The notes under the pieces: generated by a model
What the model saw: the letters and a program-made list of their open reading frames with translations, nothing else
Databases searched by the model: none
Told to the model about the DNA's origin: nothing
Source of the DNA: Ilumatobacteraceae bacterium
GTDB lineage: Bacteria > Actinomycetota > Acidimicrobiia > Acidimicrobiales > Ilumatobacteraceae
NCBI GenBank assembly: GCA_049454015.1
Contig: JBMTYA010000001.1
Span: 1-60,836, forward strand
DNA length: 60,836 bases
Direction: 5' to 3'
Shown here: positions 20,206-27,684 of the stretch, piece after piece
Layout of the letters: each line of letters starts with the position of its first letter
Position numbering within the stretch: position 1 is the first letter of the stretch
Program-made: the position numbers and the translations under genes

Positions 20206-21531
20206 TTAGAAGCCGAGAAGGCTGGCGAAATGTGCGAGCAAGCCGTCGATGGGCACTCGCACTTGGTTCGTCGAATCGCGGTCACGAACGGTGACAGCGT
20301 TATCTTCAAGCGAGTCGAAGTCGACGGTCACGCAATATGGCGTACCAATCTCGTCCTGTCGTCGGTACCGCCTACCAATCGCCTGGGTTTCGTCGTAATC
20401 GCACATGTACCGCGCCGTAAGCAGAGCAAATACCTTGTCTGCGAGCGGGGTTAGCGATTCCTTTTTTGACAGTGGCAGCACGGCCACCTGGTACGGCGCA
20501 ATTCGCGGATGCAAACGAAGCACCGTGCGGGGCTCGTCGTTCACCACGTCTTCGTCGTATGCGGCGAGCAAGAAGGCAGCCATCGTGCGATTGACGCCCG
20601 CCGCTGGTTCAACCACGTACGGCACGTAGCGCTCGTTGGACGCTTGATCGAAATAGTCAAGTTTCTGTCCGGAGTGCTGCGAGTGTTGCTTTAAGTCATA
20701 GTCAGTGCGTTGGGCGATGCCTTCCAGTTCTCCCCAGCCCCACGGAAAGAGAAACTCGATGTCGCAGGTTCCCGCCGAATAGTGCGAGAGCTCGTCTTTC
20801 TCGTGTTCGCGCAAGCGAAGCATGTCGCGCGGAATCCCGTGCGAGACATACCACTCAAGTCGTTCGTTCTTCCAGTAGTCGTACCACTGCGGACCCTCTG
20901 CTGGGGGCACAAAGAACTCAAGCTCCATCTGTTCGAACTCTCTGGTGCGAAAGATGAAGTTGCCGGGGGTGATTTCGTTGCGGAACGATTTGCCCACTTG
21001 AGCGATTCCGAATGGCGGTTTCTTTCGACTGGTAGCCAGCACGTTGGCGAAGTTGACGAACATGCCCTGTGCGGTTTCTGGGCGCAAGTACACCTCGGTG
21101 CCCGCGCCTTCGATTGGGCCGGCGTGGGTCTTGAACATCAGATTGAACGCACGCGCTTCGGTGAATGCGCAGCCTTTCATCTTCTGCGGGCAGTCGCGCG
21201 AATCGAGCTGGTCCTGGCGAAAACGTCGCTTGCACACCGTGCAATCGACGAGTGGATCGCTGAAGTTGGCGAGGTGGCCGCTCGCTTCGAATGTTTGAGG
21301 CGGGTTGAGGATCGCCGCGTCGATCAGCACCACGTCGTTGCGTCGCTGAACAACAGACCTGATCCAGGCGTCCTTCACATTCCGCAACATGAGCGCACCG
21401 AGCGGGCCGTAGTCGTACGAAGACCGAAATCCCCCGTAGATCTCCGCACTCGGAAAGGCGAACCCGCGGCGCTTCGAAAGATTGACGATTTGGTCCAAAT
21501 CCTTCGCAGGCATCTGTTTGAGGCTACTCAA
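20206..21531 (-). CDS. glyQS: Glycine--tRNA ligase (dimeric class II, GlyQS type)
   Basis: 441 aa with RRGFAFPSAEIYGG, LRPETAQG, FRNEITPGNFIFRTREFEQMELEFF and an anticodon-binding C-terminus. Confidence 0.93.
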   Translation of the reverse strand: MSSLKQMPAKDLDQIVNLSKRRGFAFPSAEIYGGFRSSYDYGPLGALMLRNVKDAWIRSVVQRRNDVVLIDAAILNPPQTFEASGHLANFSDPLVDCTVCKRRFRQDQLDSRDCPQKMKGCAFTEARAFNLMFKTHAGPIEGAGTEVYLRPETAQGMFVNFANVLATSRKKPPFGIAQVGKSFRNEITPGNFIFRTREFEQMELEFFVPPAEGPQWYDYWKNERLEWYVSHGIPRDMLRLREHEKDELSHYSAGTCDIEFLFPWGWGELEGIAQRTDYDLKQHSQHSGQKLDYFDQASNERYVPYVVEPAAGVNRTMAAFLLAAYDEDVVNDEPRTVLRLHPRIAPYQVAVLPLSKKESLTPLADKVFALLTARYMCDYDETQAIGRRYRRQDEIGTPYCVTVDFDSLEDNAVTVRDRDSTNQVRVPIDGLLAHFASLLGF

Positions 21532-22259
21532 CCTGCTCTTGGGGCCTCGAACAACGATGTCGAGCGAATCCTTCGTTCGAGGTGATGTTCAGTAGTCGCC
21601 CTCGCAATCTCCACCACTTCGCGTGTCGCATGCGCCGCTACACCCGTGCGGTTCAGCACTTCTGCCACACGCCCGCCGAGTACGCCTTGCATGATTTCAA
21701 GTGCCTCGGTAGAAAGCGACAAGCCACGCCTGTGGTCGCGACACTGCACACCGCCAGCCGCCACGTCAAATGCGCACAAGTCGTGTGCGCCCTGGCAGAC
21801 GATGCACGTGTCGACACGAGGGCCGACACCTTCGACCTCGAGCAATCGCAATTGCAACGCTGGGAGTACGAGAGGCGAGAACTGTTTGTCAAGCTGCCGC
21901 AGCGCACCGACCAGCATTCGATACAGGTGCTTGCAGGGCACCCTGTCGTGGCAGAGCTGTTCGACGACTTCGCACATGGCGAGTCCGTCGGTCGTGCACT
22001 CAAGACTGGAGCGCACATTGTTGGCAACTTCCACGAGTTCGACCTGATTCACAATGTCAAGCTCCCGACCTCTGTACAGCTGAACTTGCACGTGACTCAT
22101 GGGTTCGAGTCGGGAACCGAATCGAGACCCTGTCTTGCGGACGCCTTTGGCAACAGCACGCACTTTGCCCGAGTCCTGAGTGATGATGGTGACAATCCGG
22201 TCGGACTCCCCCAACTTGTGGGTGCGCACCACCACGCCGACGTCGCGGTAGACCGGCAT
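21528..22259 (-). CDS. recO: DNA repair protein RecO
   Basis: 243 aa with an N-terminal OB (VVRTHKLGESDRIVTIITQDSGKVRAVAKG) and a Cys cluster CIVCQ...C. It overlaps its neighbours at both ends (TGATG upstream, ATGA downstream). Confidence 0.9.
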   Translation of the reverse strand: MPVYRDVGVVVRTHKLGESDRIVTIITQDSGKVRAVAKGVRKTGSRFGSRLEPMSHVQVQLYRGRELDIVNQVELVEVANNVRSSLECTTDGLAMCEVVEQLCHDRVPCKHLYRMLVGALRQLDKQFSPLVLPALQLRLLEVEGVGPRVDTCIVCQGAHDLCAFDVAAGGVQCRDHRRGLSLSTEALEIMQGVLGGRVAEVLNRTGVAAHATREVVEIARATTEHHLERRIRSTSLFEAPRAG

Positions 22260-22831
22260 CAGGAATCGATTCCTCCGAAGCGTCGATCACGACGTGCAAA
22301 GTCGTCGATGGCCATCTCGAGGTGCTCGGCGTTCAAGTCACCCCATGGCGCATCGAGGAAGACGAGCTCTGCATACGCGATCTCCCACACCAACGAGGCG
22401 GGCATCGCGCTTGCGCTTCCGAGCACGATGACGAGGTCTGGTTCGCCCGGCGCCGGCGCGCTCAACGTCGCTGCGAGGCGCTGCTCGGTTACGTCGTCAG
22501 TCGTCATTCGGTTTACTGCATCCGCTATGCGCTGCCGGCCGTCGGCGCACAAATCGACGATCACTGTCACCCCTTCGTCCCCCAGTACGACGACTCGGTC
22601 GGCGTACTGAACACCTCCGCACGACTCAACGAGGAGCTGGCGAATATGGGAAACATCTGACTCGCTGCCAGACCCGTGCGGGATGATCGTGGCCCATTCC
22701 GCACCGCCGCCGTGCGCTACCTGAGACACAAGGGTCAGTCGCGCGCGCCATGCATCAACACTCGTCTGCGCCCACTCATGCAGGCTTCCGGCACAAAGAA
22801 GCACATGGGAAAGACTCGTTCGTGCAGCCAC
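22259..22831 (-). CDS. Degenerate cis-prenyltransferase (UPP-synthase-fold) paralogue; catalytic motifs lost, C-terminal RRFGG kept
   Basis: 190 aa, GTG start. HVLLCAGSLHEWA aligns with HVAIIMDGNGRWA. PDLVIVLGSASAMPASLVWEIAYAELVFLDAPWGD...FARRDRRFGG aligns with the C-terminal half of UPPS. Confidence 0.65.
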   Translation of the reverse strand: MAARTSLSHVLLCAGSLHEWAQTSVDAWRARLTLVSQVAHGGGAEWATIIPHGSGSESDVSHIRQLLVESCGGVQYADRVVVLGDEGVTVIVDLCADGRQRIADAVNRMTTDDVTEQRLAATLSAPAPGEPDLVIVLGSASAMPASLVWEIAYAELVFLDAPWGDLNAEHLEMAIDDFARRDRRFGGIDS

Positions 22832-22863
22832 CGTTACATCCTCGCACTAGGAAGTAGTTTCTG

Positions 22864-23574
22864 ATGCGAATCATGCCCGATGGCCTGCACCTCGCCTGCA
22901 TCATGGACGGCAACGGCCGCTGGGCAAAACGCCGCGGTCTTCCGCGAACGGCAGGCCACACCGCCGGAGAAGAAGCCCTCGCCGAGGTCGTTCGCATCGC
23001 ATCACGCCGAAACGTCGGCTGGCTAACCGTCTTTGGCTTCAGCACGGAGAACTGGGTTCGCCCGCCGTCGGAGGTTCGCCACATTCTGGGTCTGCATCGA
23101 AAACTCTTCGGCCGAATCGAAGAACTCAACGCCAACAACGTGCGTGTCAATTGGATAGGGCGGCCCTTCGACGAACCAGGATCGCGTACCCCGGGCAACG
23201 TTCAGAAGTCAATTAGGCAGGCCATTGAAGACACGAAGCACAACAACGGCATGATGCTCACTGTCGCCTTCGACTACGGAAGCCGGGCCGAAATCGCCCG
23301 TGCCGCTAAGCACGCGCGTCGAGCCATACTCGCGACTGGCTCGGGAGGCGTAGCAGGCGCAATAACCCCTCACGACCTCGAAACACACCTCTACGACCCG
23401 ACCCTTCCGCCGGTCGACGTGCTCGTGCGTACGTCGGGTGAGACACGAATCTCCAATTTCATGTTGTGGCAGTCGGCAGGTGCACGCGTGTATTTCACCG
23501 ACTGTTCGTGGCCAGACTTCGGCGCAGCCGAGATCGATGAGGCAATCGCGCTGGCTCGGCCCCGCTCCGCATGA
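22864..23574 (+). CDS. uppS: Undecaprenyl/decaprenyl diphosphate synthase (cis-prenyltransferase), catalytic paralogue
   Basis: 236 aa with LACIMDGNGRWAKRRG, FGFSTENWVRP, VLVRTSGETRISNFMLWQSA and WPDF. It ends ...ALARPRSA, without a clear RRFG tail. Confidence 0.92.
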   Translation: MRIMPDGLHLACIMDGNGRWAKRRGLPRTAGHTAGEEALAEVVRIASRRNVGWLTVFGFSTENWVRPPSEVRHILGLHRKLFGRIEELNANNVRVNWIGRPFDEPGSRTPGNVQKSIRQAIEDTKHNNGMMLTVAFDYGSRAEIARAAKHARRAILATGSGGVAGAITPHDLETHLYDPTLPPVDVLVRTSGETRISNFMLWQSAGARVYFTDCSWPDFGAAEIDEAIALARPRSA

Positions 23575-25481
23575 CGCCTGCTGCAAAGAAGGCACTGGCC
23601 CTCCTGGAACGGGTGCTTGCGCATCTCGACAATGCCGAGCAACGCGAAGGCCAAGCCGACATGGTGCGTCACATCGCCGATGCTGTTGCCACTCGTGAGA
23701 CCGTAGTAATCCAGGCAGGTACCGGCACTGGCAAAACGCTCGGCTATCTCATCCCGATTCTTGCCGCCGGTCAGACAGCCGTAATTGCTACGTATACGAA
23801 GGCGCTGCAAGACCAGTTGGCAAGCGTCGACCTTCCGCTCTTGCACGAGGTGTGCAATAACGATCCAGATCTTGCGTTTCAGTGGGCAGTGTTGAAAGGT
23901 CGCAACAACTACCTCTGTCGTCAACGTCTCGCCGAGATTGAGAACGGCCAAGATCAGCTTGACCTTGACGCCTCTTCGAAAGAGTTGCGTCAAGACGTGC
24001 AGAAGCTCCTGAAGTGGTCAGCGAGCACACCATCTGGAGACGCTTCAGACGTCCCGTTTGCCGTGAGCGACTCCGCCTGGCGAAAGGTAAGCCTCTCATC
24101 CGAGGAGTGTCCTGGTGCCGCGAAATGCGAGTACGGCGAAACATGCTTCACCGAGACAGCACGCCGCAATGCCGCCGAGTCGAACGTCATCGTGGTGAAT
24201 TTCACCCTCTATGGCCTCGACCTTCAGCAAGATCGCGAGTTTCTACCTGAACACGACGTCGTGGTATTCGACGAGGTTCATGAACTTGAAGATGTCATCA
24301 GCGACACCGCTTCGATCGTGCTCAGTCCGCGTACGTTCTCCAATGTCGCCGAGAGCGCAAGAAAGGCTCTCACCACCCAAAAGGTGGCCAATGCCCTTGC
24401 CAAGACGGCCACAGAGTTTGAAGAAGTTCTCGAACGCCATGTCGGGGTGCGCTTCCGCGAGAACCTGGCAACTGACATCACCGATACATTGACGACTTCG
24501 CTAGCGCAGATTGAGTTGCTCATCGATCAAGTAGCGCAGAAGAACGATGAATCTCCAGACGTGCTCCGTGCGTCGTCGACACTGAATCGCGCAAAGAGCG
24601 ACGTCGAGAGCGTGTTGGCATCGGGCAGCGACATTGTCTCGTTCGTCACCGACCAGCGCGGCTCGCCACGACTCACCTCGGCACCGTTACGAGTGAGCGG
24701 TGTACTTGCACCGGTCTGGGCCGAGAACGTCGCAATCTTGACGAGTGCCACCATTCCTCCTGGGCTACCCCAACGGCTCGGTCTCGCCAAGCCCGACGAA
24801 GACATTATTCAGGTGAAGAGTCCCTTTGACTACGCGAGAAACTCACTGCTCTATCTCGGCGGGGACCTCCCTGCCCCCAACGAGTCACGACGTGCTGAAG
24901 CAGTCCACGTTCGAATCAAAGAACTGATCTCGATGTCGAATGGTTCGGCCCTCGTACTCTTTACCAGTTGGGCTGCGCTCAACGAAGCTGTCGCTGCCCT
25001 CCGTGGCGACCTCGGCGACGACATTGTGCTCTACGCACAAGACGATATGCCGAAAAAGATGCTCCTCGAGCGTTTCCGCGAAGAACAGAAGTCGTGCTTG
25101 TTTGCAACGCGTGGGTACTTCCAAGGAGTCGACGTGCCAGGCGATGCCCTGCGTCTCGTCATCATCGATAAGGTTCCGTTTCCTGCACTACAGGATCCGC
25201 TACTCGACGCCCGTCGCGAGCAGGCTGGCAAAGATTCCTTCCTGCGCATCGATGTGCCAATTGCGGCCGCATCCCTTGCCCAAGCTGCAGGCAGGCTCAT
25301 ACGCACCGCCTCCGACCACGGTGTAGTAGCAATCCTCGATCCGCGTCTCGCGACGAAGCGCTACAAGCCGCTCGTGCTGCACGGTGTGTCGCACATGCCT
25401 GAGACGAACTCTCTGCGAGAAGTCGAGGAGTTCTTCATCAAGCGTCTGGGTGGAAGCGGTACCCGAGTCCGCGGTTCGTGA
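23571..25481 (+). CDS. dinG: DinG/Rad3-family ATP-dependent DNA helicase
   Basis: 636 aa with Walker A QAGTGTGKTLGYL and a DEAH-like VVFDEVHELED. Four Cys fit an Fe-S module (YLCRQ, CPGAAKCEYGETC). C-terminal helicase motifs are FATRGYFQGVDVPG and QAAGRLIR. ATGA overlap with the uppS stop. Confidence 0.85.
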   Translation: MTPAAKKALALLERVLAHLDNAEQREGQADMVRHIADAVATRETVVIQAGTGTGKTLGYLIPILAAGQTAVIATYTKALQDQLASVDLPLLHEVCNNDPDLAFQWAVLKGRNNYLCRQRLAEIENGQDQLDLDASSKELRQDVQKLLKWSASTPSGDASDVPFAVSDSAWRKVSLSSEECPGAAKCEYGETCFTETARRNAAESNVIVVNFTLYGLDLQQDREFLPEHDVVVFDEVHELEDVISDTASIVLSPRTFSNVAESARKALTTQKVANALAKTATEFEEVLERHVGVRFRENLATDITDTLTTSLAQIELLIDQVAQKNDESPDVLRASSTLNRAKSDVESVLASGSDIVSFVTDQRGSPRLTSAPLRVSGVLAPVWAENVAILTSATIPPGLPQRLGLAKPDEDIIQVKSPFDYARNSLLYLGGDLPAPNESRRAEAVHVRIKELISMSNGSALVLFTSWAALNEAVAALRGDLGDDIVLYAQDDMPKKMLLERFREEQKSCLFATRGYFQGVDVPGDALRLVIIDKVPFPALQDPLLDARREQAGKDSFLRIDVPIAAASLAQAAGRLIRTASDHGVVAILDPRLATKRYKPLVLHGVSHMPETNSLREVEEFFIKRLGGSGTRVRGS

Positions 25482-26127
25482 CGATGAACTTCGGGTCGTT
25501 CGGGGTGTCCTCAATCTTCACGCGCAAACGTCGGATGTGGGCATCGACCAGCCGACTATCCCCCAGGTAGTCGTACCCCCAGACGCGTTCCAACAATTGA
25601 TCCCTGCTGAGCACAACGTTCGGATGGTCCGCAAACTCAATAAGCAAACGCAGCTCGGTCTTGGTGAGAGCGAGTTCATGGCCGCCTTTCATCACGATTC
25701 CCGCTTCACGTCGAAGTTCAACATCGCCGAACCGTGTCACGTCAGGCGCGCGGTTTGATGCTTCACGAACGAGACGGCGCAGAGCAGCTCGAATTCGAGC
25801 TGCGAGCTCTTTGGTGTTGACAGGTTTTGTCACGTAGTCGTCGGCGCCGGCTTCCAGACCCGCCACGAGGTCGTGAGTGTCGGTTTGTGCAGTGACGATG
25901 ATGATTGGCACGTTGCTGCGCTGGCGAATCTCCCTGCACACCTCAAAGCCAGAGATGTCAGGCAGCCGAAGATCAAGCAAAATGAGATCTGGCTGCTCGG
26001 TCGAAGCGAGTGATAACCCCAGCTGGCCGCTTGGTGCCTGCAACACTTCATAGCCCTCGTCTTCGAGGGCCAGGCTGAGTGCTCCCCGGATACCGGCATC
26101 ATCCTCGACTAAGAGAATTTGTGCCAT
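25438..26127 (-). CDS. mtrA: OmpR/PhoB-family response regulator (MtrA-like)
   Basis: I trimmed to MAQILLVEDDAGIR (ATG at 26127). It has a receiver (LILLDLRLPDISG) and a winged-helix output (LTKTELRLLIEF...RGLGYRF). The symbol is tentative and rests on the adjacent mtrB-lpqB-like pair. Confidence 0.8.
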   Translation of the reverse strand: MAQILLVEDDAGIRGALSLALEDEGYEVLQAPSGQLGLSLASTEQPDLILLDLRLPDISGFEVCREIRQRSNVPIIIVTAQTDTHDLVAGLEAGADDYVTKPVNTKELAARIRAALRRLVREASNRAPDVTRFGDVELRREAGIVMKGGHELALTKTELRLLIEFADHPNVVLSRDQLLERVWGYDYLGDSRLVDAHIRRLRVKIEDTPNDPKFIVTNRGLGYRFHPDA

Positions 26128-26218
26128 GGCACGAAGTCTGCCAAAGACATCCCAACTGTTACACAAAACGCACACTTTCGCAGGCGTCTCGTCACATGGA
26201 CTGAGCATTCTTTTACAA

Positions 26219-26260
26219 GAGCCGGCGCGGGGTCATGCTCCCCCTTGACCCCGCCGGCTC
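26219..26260. repeat. GC-rich imperfect inverted repeat / hairpin in the mtrA-mtrB divergent spacer
   Basis: GAGCCGGCGCGGGGTCA (26219-26235) pairs with TGACCCCGCCGGCTC (26246-26260). That is 15 bp with two single-nt bulges and a 10-nt loop, ending 20 nt before the kinase ATG. Confidence 0.6.
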
Positions 26261-26280
26261 GATATTGCGGCGGTCGTGAG

Positions 26281-27684
26281 ATGCGCAATGCTGGTCACAT
26301 GCGAATTCCGCGGGCCCTGCGTCCTGGACTGCGCACGCGCATCGTCGCCTATTTCTCGTTTGCGACGTTCATTGGTGTGCTCATCTTGAGCATTGTTACG
26401 TTCGCGGCCACGCGCAACTATCTGGTCGACAAGGCAACGACATCCGCTCGCGACCAGGCACTCGCCAATGCGCAGCTCGTACGAACACTTGTCGGAGCGA
26501 GTCGAGTCGACGCTGGCGAGGTGGTTACCGACCTTCGAACCCAGCCCGGCGGTTACGCGGTCTTGCATCTCGGTGCCGAGAACTTGTTCTATGCGCAGGC
26601 ACCTCTGCGGTTTACACAGTCAAACCTCCCGACCGATTTCGTGCGCAGCGCAATCGCTGGTCAGAGCGGCGTGCAACGCGTGGACTTCTTGGGTCGTCCA
26701 TACGAGGCTGTCGCCATCGACGTTCCCGCAATTGACGCCACGTACTTCGAGGTGTTTCCGATCAGTGACGTAGCCGACACACTCGGAACGATTCGCTCGA
26801 TTCTCGTAGTCGCAGTGTTGATCATCACCATTTCTGCCGGCCTCATCGGTTTCCTATTGAGCGGAAACGTGCTGTATCCGTTGCGCCGAGTGACAGAGGC
26901 GGCAACCACCATTGCCGAGGGAGCACTGGCGACTCGCCTCGAACCCGAACCAGACCCCGAGCTGCAACAACTCGTCGACAGTTTCAATGGCATGGCAGAC
27001 GCTGTGCAGGAGCGCATCGAACGCGAAGAACGCTTCGCAAGCGACGTGAGCCACGAGCTAAGGTCGCCCATCACGTCGCTCGGGGCTGCAGTGGAAGTGT
27101 TGAAGGGTCGCTCCGAGGAATTATCCGAGCGCAATCGACAAGCCCTTGACATCATCGCCACCCAAGTACGTCGTTTCGACCGCACTGTCCTCGATCTCCT
27201 TGAATTGAGCCGCCTCGACGCTCGAGCCGGGCAGGACAACCGTGAGGAACTCCATCTCGGTGCCTTGGTGGAGAGAATCGCTGGACGCCACGGTTACGGA
27301 TCGGTTCTCGTCGTCTCTGACCTTGGCGACGACGACGTCGTGTATCTCGACCGACGTCGAGTCGAACGCATCCTGCTTAACCTGCTCGATAATGCCCGTG
27401 ACCATGCCGGAGGAGCGTCCGAGATACTCCTCAGCAGCGACGACTCGGGAAATCTGCTACTCATCGTCGATGACAACGGTCCTGGCATCGGCGTCAGCGA
27501 ACGCGACAGAATCTTCGAGCGATTCGCACGAGGCACTGCCTCGCGTAACAGCGTGGGCAGCGGGCTCGGTTTGGCCATCGTTTCCGAACACGCAAAAGCA
27601 CTAGGTGGCCGCGCCTACGTGGATACCTCGCCAAGCGGCGGCGCACGCTTCGTCGTCGTGATTCCGCCAGGAGGCACGGAATGA
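26281..27684 (+). CDS. mtrB: Sensor histidine kinase (MtrB-like: 2 TM, HAMP, HisKA, HATPase)
   Basis: I trimmed to MRNAGHMRIPRAL (ATG 26281; ATG 26299 is also possible). TM helices are present, the H-box is FASDVSHELRSP, and ATPase motifs are LLDNARDH, DDNGPGI and GSGLGLAIV. Confidence 0.82.
   Translation: MRNAGHMRIPRALRPGLRTRIVAYFSFATFIGVLILSIVTFAATRNYLVDKATTSARDQALANAQLVRTLVGASRVDAGEVVTDLRTQPGGYAVLHLGAENLFYAQAPLRFTQSNLPTDFVRSAIAGQSGVQRVDFLGRPYEAVAIDVPAIDATYFEVFPISDVADTLGTIRSILVVAVLIITISAGLIGFLLSGNVLYPLRRVTEAATTIAEGALATRLEPEPDPELQQLVDSFNGMADAVQERIEREERFASDVSHELRSPITSLGAAVEVLKGRSEELSERNRQALDIIATQVRRFDRTVLDLLELSRLDARAGQDNREELHLGALVERIAGRHGYGSVLVVSDLGDDDVVYLDRRRVERILLNLLDNARDHAGGASEILLSSDDSGNLLLIVDDNGPGIGVSERDRIFERFARGTASRNSVGSGLGLAIVSEHAKALGGRAYVDTSPSGGARFVVVIPPGGTE

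Follow-up and report, generated by a model that had tools for sequence, protein, structure and literature searches.

Can a bacterial cis-prenyltransferase be divided between two genes, one for catalysis and one for the C-terminal RXG turn that closes the active site? The textbook example of a homodimeric cis-prenyltransferase is undecaprenyl diphosphate synthase (UPPS), which is essential and serves as an antibiotic target. The question is raised by a contig of an Ilumatobacteraceae bacterium (GCA_049454015.1, JBMTYA010000001.1, positions 1 to 60,836; this whole stretch of 60,836 nucleotides is called the window), from the freshwater acIV/Ilumatobacteraceae clade, which is abundant and poorly cultivated. 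Open reading frame (ORF) listing and translation returned two divergent cis-prenyltransferase genes where a preliminary description of this DNA had placed them (Table 1); we call the 236-aa product of the plus-strand gene cat and the 190-aa product of the minus-strand gene acc. Cat and acc probably make up an obligately heteromeric cis-prenyltransferase. Such an enzyme would serve the cell as its polyprenyl diphosphate synthase, of the undecaprenyl or decaprenyl type.

A putative catalytic subunit without the RXG turn

Cat matches positions 1-209 of the 219 in the PF01255 profile (E 3.5e-66, 223.3 bits, cutoff 27), and at 205 bits it exceeds the cutoff of the TIGR00055 uppS equivalog (109.55). 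The last 10 positions of PF01255, which contain RXG, are unmatched, and the NCBIfam matches of cat all end ~10-15 model positions short of the model end. In alignment, the R-F-G of the E. coli UPPS RXG occupies positions 18-20 past WPDF, and cat, whose terminal residues are ...WPDFGAAEIDEAIALARPRSA, stops exactly before that point. The preliminary reading of this protein, a full set of catalytic motifs with an RXG that is not intact, is thus borne out.

Acc also aligns to PF01255, with residues 86-186 only, covering profile positions 113-219, i.e. through to the profile end (E 1.1e-13, 51.7 bits, same cutoff), and it is not a member of the uppS equivalog (36.4 bits against 109.55). The functional motifs of the two proteins are complementary. 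A homodimeric UPPS carries D26, R30, S71/N74, R194, E198, R200 and S202 together with RXG on one chain, and neither protein does so: in the alignments cat has the catalytic residues without RXG, and acc has RXG without any catalytic residue.

A paralogue reduced to fold, interface-like block and tail

The motifs were compared by aligning cat and acc with ordinary UPPS in MAFFT. Acc has no F-S-x-E-N-W, and it reads V-L-G-S-A-S-A-M-P-A where UPPS has R-T-S-G-E-x-R-I-S-N. The replacements of catalytic positions reported earlier for this protein are real and hold throughout its family (alignments A1 and A2), with HVLLCAGSLHEWA in place of HVAIIMDGNGRWA, and DLVIVLGSASAMPASLVWEIAYAELVF in place of DLxIRTxGExRxSNFLLWQxAYxEL. 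In addition, acc has a deletion of ~50 residues matching cat residues ~66-118, much of the α2-α3 region, a stretch that we take from the general fold to line the product tunnel in UPPS. What acc retains is the His before strand A, the L-V-W-E-x-A-Y-x-E-L-V-F block, and the tail R-R-D-R-R-F-G-G-I-D-S.

That tail, which the preliminary description had already picked out as preserved, is the most conserved segment of acc: in an alignment of 93 sequences R180, R181, R183, R184, G186 and D189 are invariant, F185 nearly so, and the invariant columns cluster in the C-terminal third of the protein. An AlphaFold2 model built from the same alignment has a mean predicted local distance difference test score (pLDDT) of 90.7 and a predicted template modelling score of 0.88. 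Its residues 181-190 average a pLDDT of only 55, and such low confidence is as expected of a segment that would become ordered only on a partner. All 50 matches listed by a Foldseek search of the model against the PDB are enzymes of the cis-prenyltransferase fold, the best being E. coli UPPS (E 1.8e-7, template modelling score ~0.6 over the whole chain), so that the earlier impression of a still recognizable fold stands.

Acc is a real, folded protein under strong purifying selection. Homologues number 459 among 5.8 billion proteins, the full-length ones being ~190-200 aa, and their named sources are Acidimicrobiia, Ilumatobacteraceae or Actinomycetota metagenome-assembled genomes (MAGs). Among close relatives dN/dS (Nei-Gojobori) spans 0.03-0.15 in acc and 0.02-0.15 in cat. 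In public records the acc homologues go by the names "undecaprenyl diphosphate synthase (family protein)" or "hypothetical", and the cat homologues are listed as ordinary UPPS.

The split is conserved across the clade

Relatives were sought by scanning GTDB, at one genome per species, with patterns derived from acc; our view of the source genome is the 60-kb window, and related genomes were covered over at most 20 kb each. The scan gave 40 loci with acc relatives (L001-L040, of which L040 holds only the C-terminal part of acc), all from Acidimicrobiia or Ilumatobacteraceae-type MAGs, and 40 further loci (L041-L080) with ordinary UPPS matched through the C-terminal half only. Four of the MAG records (L003, L008, L013 and L019) bear the title 'Bifidobacterium breve' or 'Ferrithrix thermotolerans DSM 19514', organism names that look mislabelled.

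None of the 39 full-length loci (L001-L039) has a disrupted acc ORF, and in essentially every one of them tblastn with five window proteins recovers the order helicase<-cat<- followed by ->acc->recO->glyS. Cat and acc adjoin in 36 of 37 related loci, with a spacer of 41-222 bp, and lie 2.3 kb apart in the remaining one, L008. RXG is absent from 37/37 complete cat genes next to acc, which end soon after WPDF..LD.AL.L.., versus a loss in 0/40 ordinary UPPS of the same scan, all of which have RR[FY]G, mostly after R-[ED]. As the split recurs in 37 independent genomes, it goes far beyond chance. The catalytic P-loop of cat is likewise kept (Table 1), and past WPDF no R-x-G occurs in 119 of the closest 120 database homologues of cat (216-247 aa), the lone exception (…LARRGT) having its R-x-G at an earlier, non-homologous position.

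The split also extends to more distant relatives. An exhaustive HMMER search of 1.84 billion cluster representatives with an acc profile gave 1052 clusters at E<=1e-10, of which ~50 reached E<=1e-30; among the matches listed, 103 representatives measure 170 aa or more, and 72 of these combine an RR[FY]G end with the absence of every catalytic motif. Two distant members, P0266 and P0255, show the same synteny, and their cat neighbours lack RXG, ending …LDRAIDLARRA and …LDAAMSLVRS. The distant loci L081-L083 have the same layout and the same motif split. Pairwise identities of acc and cat correlate across 38 genomes (r = 0.89; means 47% for acc and 70% for cat), and a neighbor-joining tree gives similar-looking subclades for the two, as long vertical co-inheritance would.

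In L008 the interval between cat and acc is filled by a gene (L008:1798-3885) for an apparent polytopic membrane protein of 695 aa with many hydrophobic stretches. A Pfam search of this protein gave no match; it could, as an unsupported guess, be a polyprenyl-phosphate-dependent glycosyltransferase.

A candidate heteromeric enzyme

In the proposed mechanism, cat would supply the whole condensation machinery for farnesyl diphosphate and isopentenyl diphosphate (IPP), along with the product tunnel, and would lack the RXG turn, which in every studied cis-prenyltransferase comes from the partner chain and closes over the IPP diphosphate and Mg2+. Since RXG is normally supplied in trans, cat misses just the element that a partner would give. 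Acc, as a shrunken and catalytically dead copy, would keep the dimerization block (LVWE-AY-ELVF) and the flexible RRDRRFGG tail; the tail would cross the cat-acc interface and complete a single active site, in the manner of NgBR/Nus1 with DHDDS and of MaUPPS-B in Methanosarcina acetovorans. On this scheme a heterodimer of cat and acc would hold one complete active site, and a cat homodimer none.

Published work gives precedents for this scheme. The C-terminus of NgBR passes across the dimer interface and, via RXG, binds the beta-phosphate of IPP, the backbone amides of Leu291 and Gly292 contacting the phosphate and Arg290 a Mg-bound water, and in homodimeric cis-prenyltransferases this role falls to the RXG of the opposite monomer (bioRxiv 10.1101/2020.06.03.132209). 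A yeast complementation assay gave no growth with the mutants G244A of E. coli UPPS and G238A of the Giardia enzyme (bioRxiv 10.1101/139675). M. acetovorans needs both MaUPPS-A (no RXG) and MaUPPS-B (RXG) (bioRxiv 10.1101/139675). The preliminary description, which also mentioned a heteromer in a methanogenic archaeon, had called such an arrangement untypical of bacteria, and reviews from 2020, 2025 and 2026 agree in giving bacterial cis-prenyltransferases as homomeric (one says "all characterized bacterial CPTs") and in placing heteromers in eukaryotes and some Euryarchaeota (Methanosarcina, Archaeoglobus). No description of a bacterial heteromeric cis-prenyltransferase was found in the literature searched, which is not proof of absence. 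Most likely the pair forms a two-subunit enzyme of a kind demonstrated to date in eukaryotes and certain archaea only.

The likeness to DHDDS-NgBR (Rer2/Srt1-Nus1) is close. There too a catalytic subunit without RXG, as cat, goes with a partner, as acc, that has the cis-prenyltransferase fold, no catalytic residues and RXG at its extreme C-terminus, and that resembles UPPS in sequence mainly in the C-terminal half. A further shared trait lies in the block around E. coli E213 (W-Q-I-A-Y-A-E; Table 1). This Glu is kept in the RXG donors, as E155 of acc (W-E-I-A-Y-A-E) and in human NgBR (W-H-I-R-L-T-E), and is replaced in the catalytic chains, by R208 in cat (W-Q-S-A-G-A-R; K or R throughout the clade) and by Cys in human DHDDS (W-Q-T-S-H-S-C); the human sequences were checked against PDB chains. 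The pattern suggests that the Glu has a role tied to the chain that donates RXG. The two systems differ in that acc lacks both a transmembrane segment and an N-terminal extension, C-terminal clamp helices are missing from cat, the tail of acc is of the bacterial RRFGG type rather than RLGK, and the genes of cat and acc are adjacent and divergent.

The archaeal heteromers (MA3723/MA4402 and MM_1083/MM_0618 of Methanosarcina, Af1219/Af0707 of Archaeoglobus) are nearer in build, being soluble and prokaryotic and combining an RXG-less catalytic chain with a short RXG-bearing accessory chain that has no transmembrane segments. Their accessory subunits are NgBR/Nus1-like and come from Euryarchaeota (the comparison with acc is by description, not sequence), whereas cat and acc are bacterial and apparently derived from bacterial UPPS; the archaeal texts report no gene adjacency. 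With homodimeric UPPS and decaprenyl diphosphate synthases (E. coli UppS, M. tuberculosis Rv2361c, Thermobifida fusca) cat shares the fold and the catalytic residues, and in these too RXG acts in trans, but they hold catalytic residues and RXG on one polypeptide where here they are on two.

If the heteromer is real and derives from bacterial UPPS, the division into catalytic and RXG-donor subunits would have arisen more than once, and cat/acc would offer a small soluble system, free of transmembrane segments, in which to study completion of an active site by a partner's tail, as well as a natural series for the passage from homodimer to obligate heterodimer by complementary loss. The annotation of acc and cat homologues would also be improved.

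Weighing the alternatives

The complementary motifs, the fold of acc, the clade-wide co-occurrence and adjacency, the purifying selection on both genes, and the position of acc in the ancestral uppS slot (described below) are shown here. From these we infer physical heterodimerization, donation of the tail in trans, inactivity of cat alone, the product chain length, and duplication with complementary loss. Taken together, sequence, structure prediction (of acc alone) and comparative genomics lend the heterodimer proposed in the preliminary description a good probability. All the computational checks suggested there favour it, and none of the refuting outcomes named there and open to computation was seen.

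Several points weigh against it. The heterodimer and the dependence of activity on two subunits are carried over from the precedents of NgBR/DHDDS and Methanosarcina. A canonical RXG may be dispensable in some irregular cis-prenyltransferases, so that the absence of RXG is no absolute proof that cat alone is inactive. The final ARPRSA of the window cat holds two Arg, which its relatives do not conserve. A third cis-prenyltransferase, bearing RXG, is possible outside the window and the stretches covered in related genomes; within the window, tblastn with 77 cis-prenyltransferases hit the cat and acc regions only and gave no third. Finally, in a neighbor-joining tree of 115 shared C-terminal columns cat and acc form separate long branches, and neither joins the Acidimicrobiia UPPS.

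One alternative is that cat is a self-sufficient homodimeric UPPS that dispenses with RXG, and that acc is a pseudoenzyme, for instance a regulator or scaffold tied to recO or to cell-envelope synthesis. Cat does score above the uppS equivalog threshold, acc is co-transcribed with recO and not with cat, and a second group of Acidimicrobiales has a degenerate cis-prenyltransferase by recO and no catalytic copy within 10 kb. The strongest constraint on acc, however, falls exactly on the RXG tail, for which we know of no role beyond completing the cis-prenyltransferase active site, and the loss of RXG from cat co-occurs perfectly with acc. Mutations in RXG, moreover, cripple the homomeric E. coli and Giardia enzymes (bioRxiv 10.1101/139675). 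We consider this explanation unlikely.

A little less probable still is that the essential lipid carrier comes from a complete third UPPS encoded elsewhere in the genome and that cat/acc, heteromeric or not, makes a specialized polyprenyl. Many Actinomycetota carry two cis-prenyltransferases (in M. tuberculosis, Rv1086 and Rv2361c), and the genome is seen here through 60 kb with just two cis-prenyltransferase regions; against this, acc sits where outgroup Acidimicrobiia keep their housekeeping uppS, and cat is conserved like a housekeeping gene, with 64-78% identity to the related loci. This alternative is compatible with the heteromer mechanism itself.

That acc is a functionless, decaying remnant of the ancestral uppS, as the loss of all catalytic residues and ~50 further residues might indicate, is scarcely credible given an ORF intact in 39/39 full-length loci, 459 homologues, ~50 clusters at E<=1e-30, dN/dS of 0.03-0.15 and an invariant tail. 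A pseudogene is refuted by the same dN/dS and conservation.

Origin of the pair

In the outgroup Acidimicrobiia-type loci L041, L042 and L045, a single complete uppS with RXG, an ordinary enzyme of the homodimeric type, lies directly upstream of recO-glyS, in the slot that acc holds in the window, and in L042 the helicase gene diverges from it. The W-E (not W-Q) variant of LLW[EQ]xAYxELVF is common to acc and the outgroup Acidimicrobiia UPPS. Most simply, acc would be what is left of the ancestral uppS beside recO, pared down once a second copy, cat, had appeared between it and the helicase gene. The neighbor-joining tree mentioned above is uninformative on the source of cat, so the argument for local duplication, as opposed to horizontal acquisition, is one from synteny only.

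The preliminary description had tied acc to recO through a TGATG overlap, and this is present (22257..22261), shared by the acc stop and the recO start; its comparison with the recO-adjacent uppS of mycobacteria needs correction, in that acc lies upstream of recO and the M. tuberculosis uppS downstream. The outgroup Acidimicrobiia above provide the better comparison for the acc slot.

As a candidate NgBR orthologue acc was rejected: its profile finds E. coli UPPS at 2.3e-17 and NUS1 at 4e-4, nearer to the former, and its tail is RRFGG, as in bacterial UPPS. Being closer to bacterial UPPS than to NgBR, acc makes the split look like one of independent bacterial origin. We would give an even chance to a fuller scenario, in which a bacterial obligate heteromer arose apart from the NgBR lineage through an inverted duplication of uppS beside recO and complementary degeneration, the old copy keeping only the interface and the RXG tail and the new one only catalysis, and in which Acidimicrobiales keep graded intermediates. 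If so, the path from homodimer to obligate heterodimer could be reconstructed, and tested, from those intermediates.

Other Acidimicrobiales hold a second, less degenerate group of recO-linked cis-prenyltransferases (P0347, P0397, P0412 and P0321; loci in Table 1). These have lost DGNGR and SxENW, retain part of R-T-G-G-D-R-R, and have the tail RRDRRYGG. Their loci read cis-prenyltransferase->small ORF->recO->radical SAM->glyS, and a Pfam search of the small ORF gave no match. No catalytic cis-prenyltransferase was found within 10 kb, so a partner, if there is any, would be encoded elsewhere. The group may represent an intermediate stage of the same degeneration.

Gene neighbourhood

The short divergent arrangement described earlier was confirmed by reading the spacer (Table 1), and a scan of 22500..23200 found no sigma-70-like promoter site. 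The cat and acc transcripts are probably leaderless, or start within each other's coding region. On the far side of cat, its stop and the helicase ATG share ATGA (23571..23574).

Table 1. Genes and motifs of the cat/acc locus, with the second group of recO-linked loci (positions in the window unless a locus is named)
Feature	Coordinates	Strand	Remarks and basis
cat, putative catalytic cis-prenyltransferase subunit, 236 aa	22864..23574	+	PF01255, TIGR00055; catalytic motifs complete, RXG tail absent
cat P-loop LACIMDGNGRWAKRRG	22891..22938	+	Equivalents of E. coli D26/R30 intact; invariant in 24 paired sequences
cat E213-equivalent block, W202-F211	23467..23496	+	Alignment
cat C-terminus, WPDF to last residue	23509..23571	+	Ends 17 residues past WPDF
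acc, non-catalytic cis-prenyltransferase paralogue, 190 aa, proposed RXG donor	22259..22831	-	GTG start; PF01255, AlphaFold2, Foldseek, homologues
acc degenerate P-loop HVLLCAGSLHEWA	22769..22807	-	D26 to G, R30 to E; His before strand A kept; alignments
acc degenerate region V PDLVIVLGSASAMPASLVWEIAYAELVF	22358..22441	-	Equivalents of R194, E198, R200, S202 and N203 gone; W-x-x-A-Y-x-E-L-V-F kept; alignments
acc E213-equivalent block, W149-F158	22358..22387	-	Alignment
acc RXG motif, R184-F185-G186	22274..22282	-	Codons read; inside tail RRDRRFGGIDS, 22262..22294
Divergent spacer between acc and cat start codons, 32 bp	22832..22863		Sequence read
recO	21528..22259	-	RecO_N and RecO_C; start overlaps acc stop
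Glycyl-tRNA synthetase (glyS)	20206..21531	-	tRNA-synt_2b and HGTP_anticodon, synteny; downstream of recO, helps define the conserved slot
DinG-like helicase	23571..25481	+	Helicase_C_2, DEAD, DEAD_2; start overlaps cat stop
Second-group locus L084	L084:1757-2401		
Second-group locus L088	L088:10001-10642		GCA_021791845.1 JAJYVT010000007.1
Second-group locus L089	L089:10001-10645		

The helicase gene lies 3' of cat in every related locus whose sequence reaches that far. This coupling of a lipid-carrier synthase gene to a DNA helicase gene is an unexplained conserved pairing, mirrored on the other side by that of acc with recO. Further out, an OmpR-type response regulator gene (25438..26208, minus strand) adjoins a 521-aa ORF (26119..27684, plus strand), apparently a sensor histidine kinase as judged by eye and against L081, which has a similar response-regulator gene at the same position. 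Such a regulator/kinase pair is also found near the cat/acc block in L081 and L082, with no evident tie to the cis-prenyltransferase pair.

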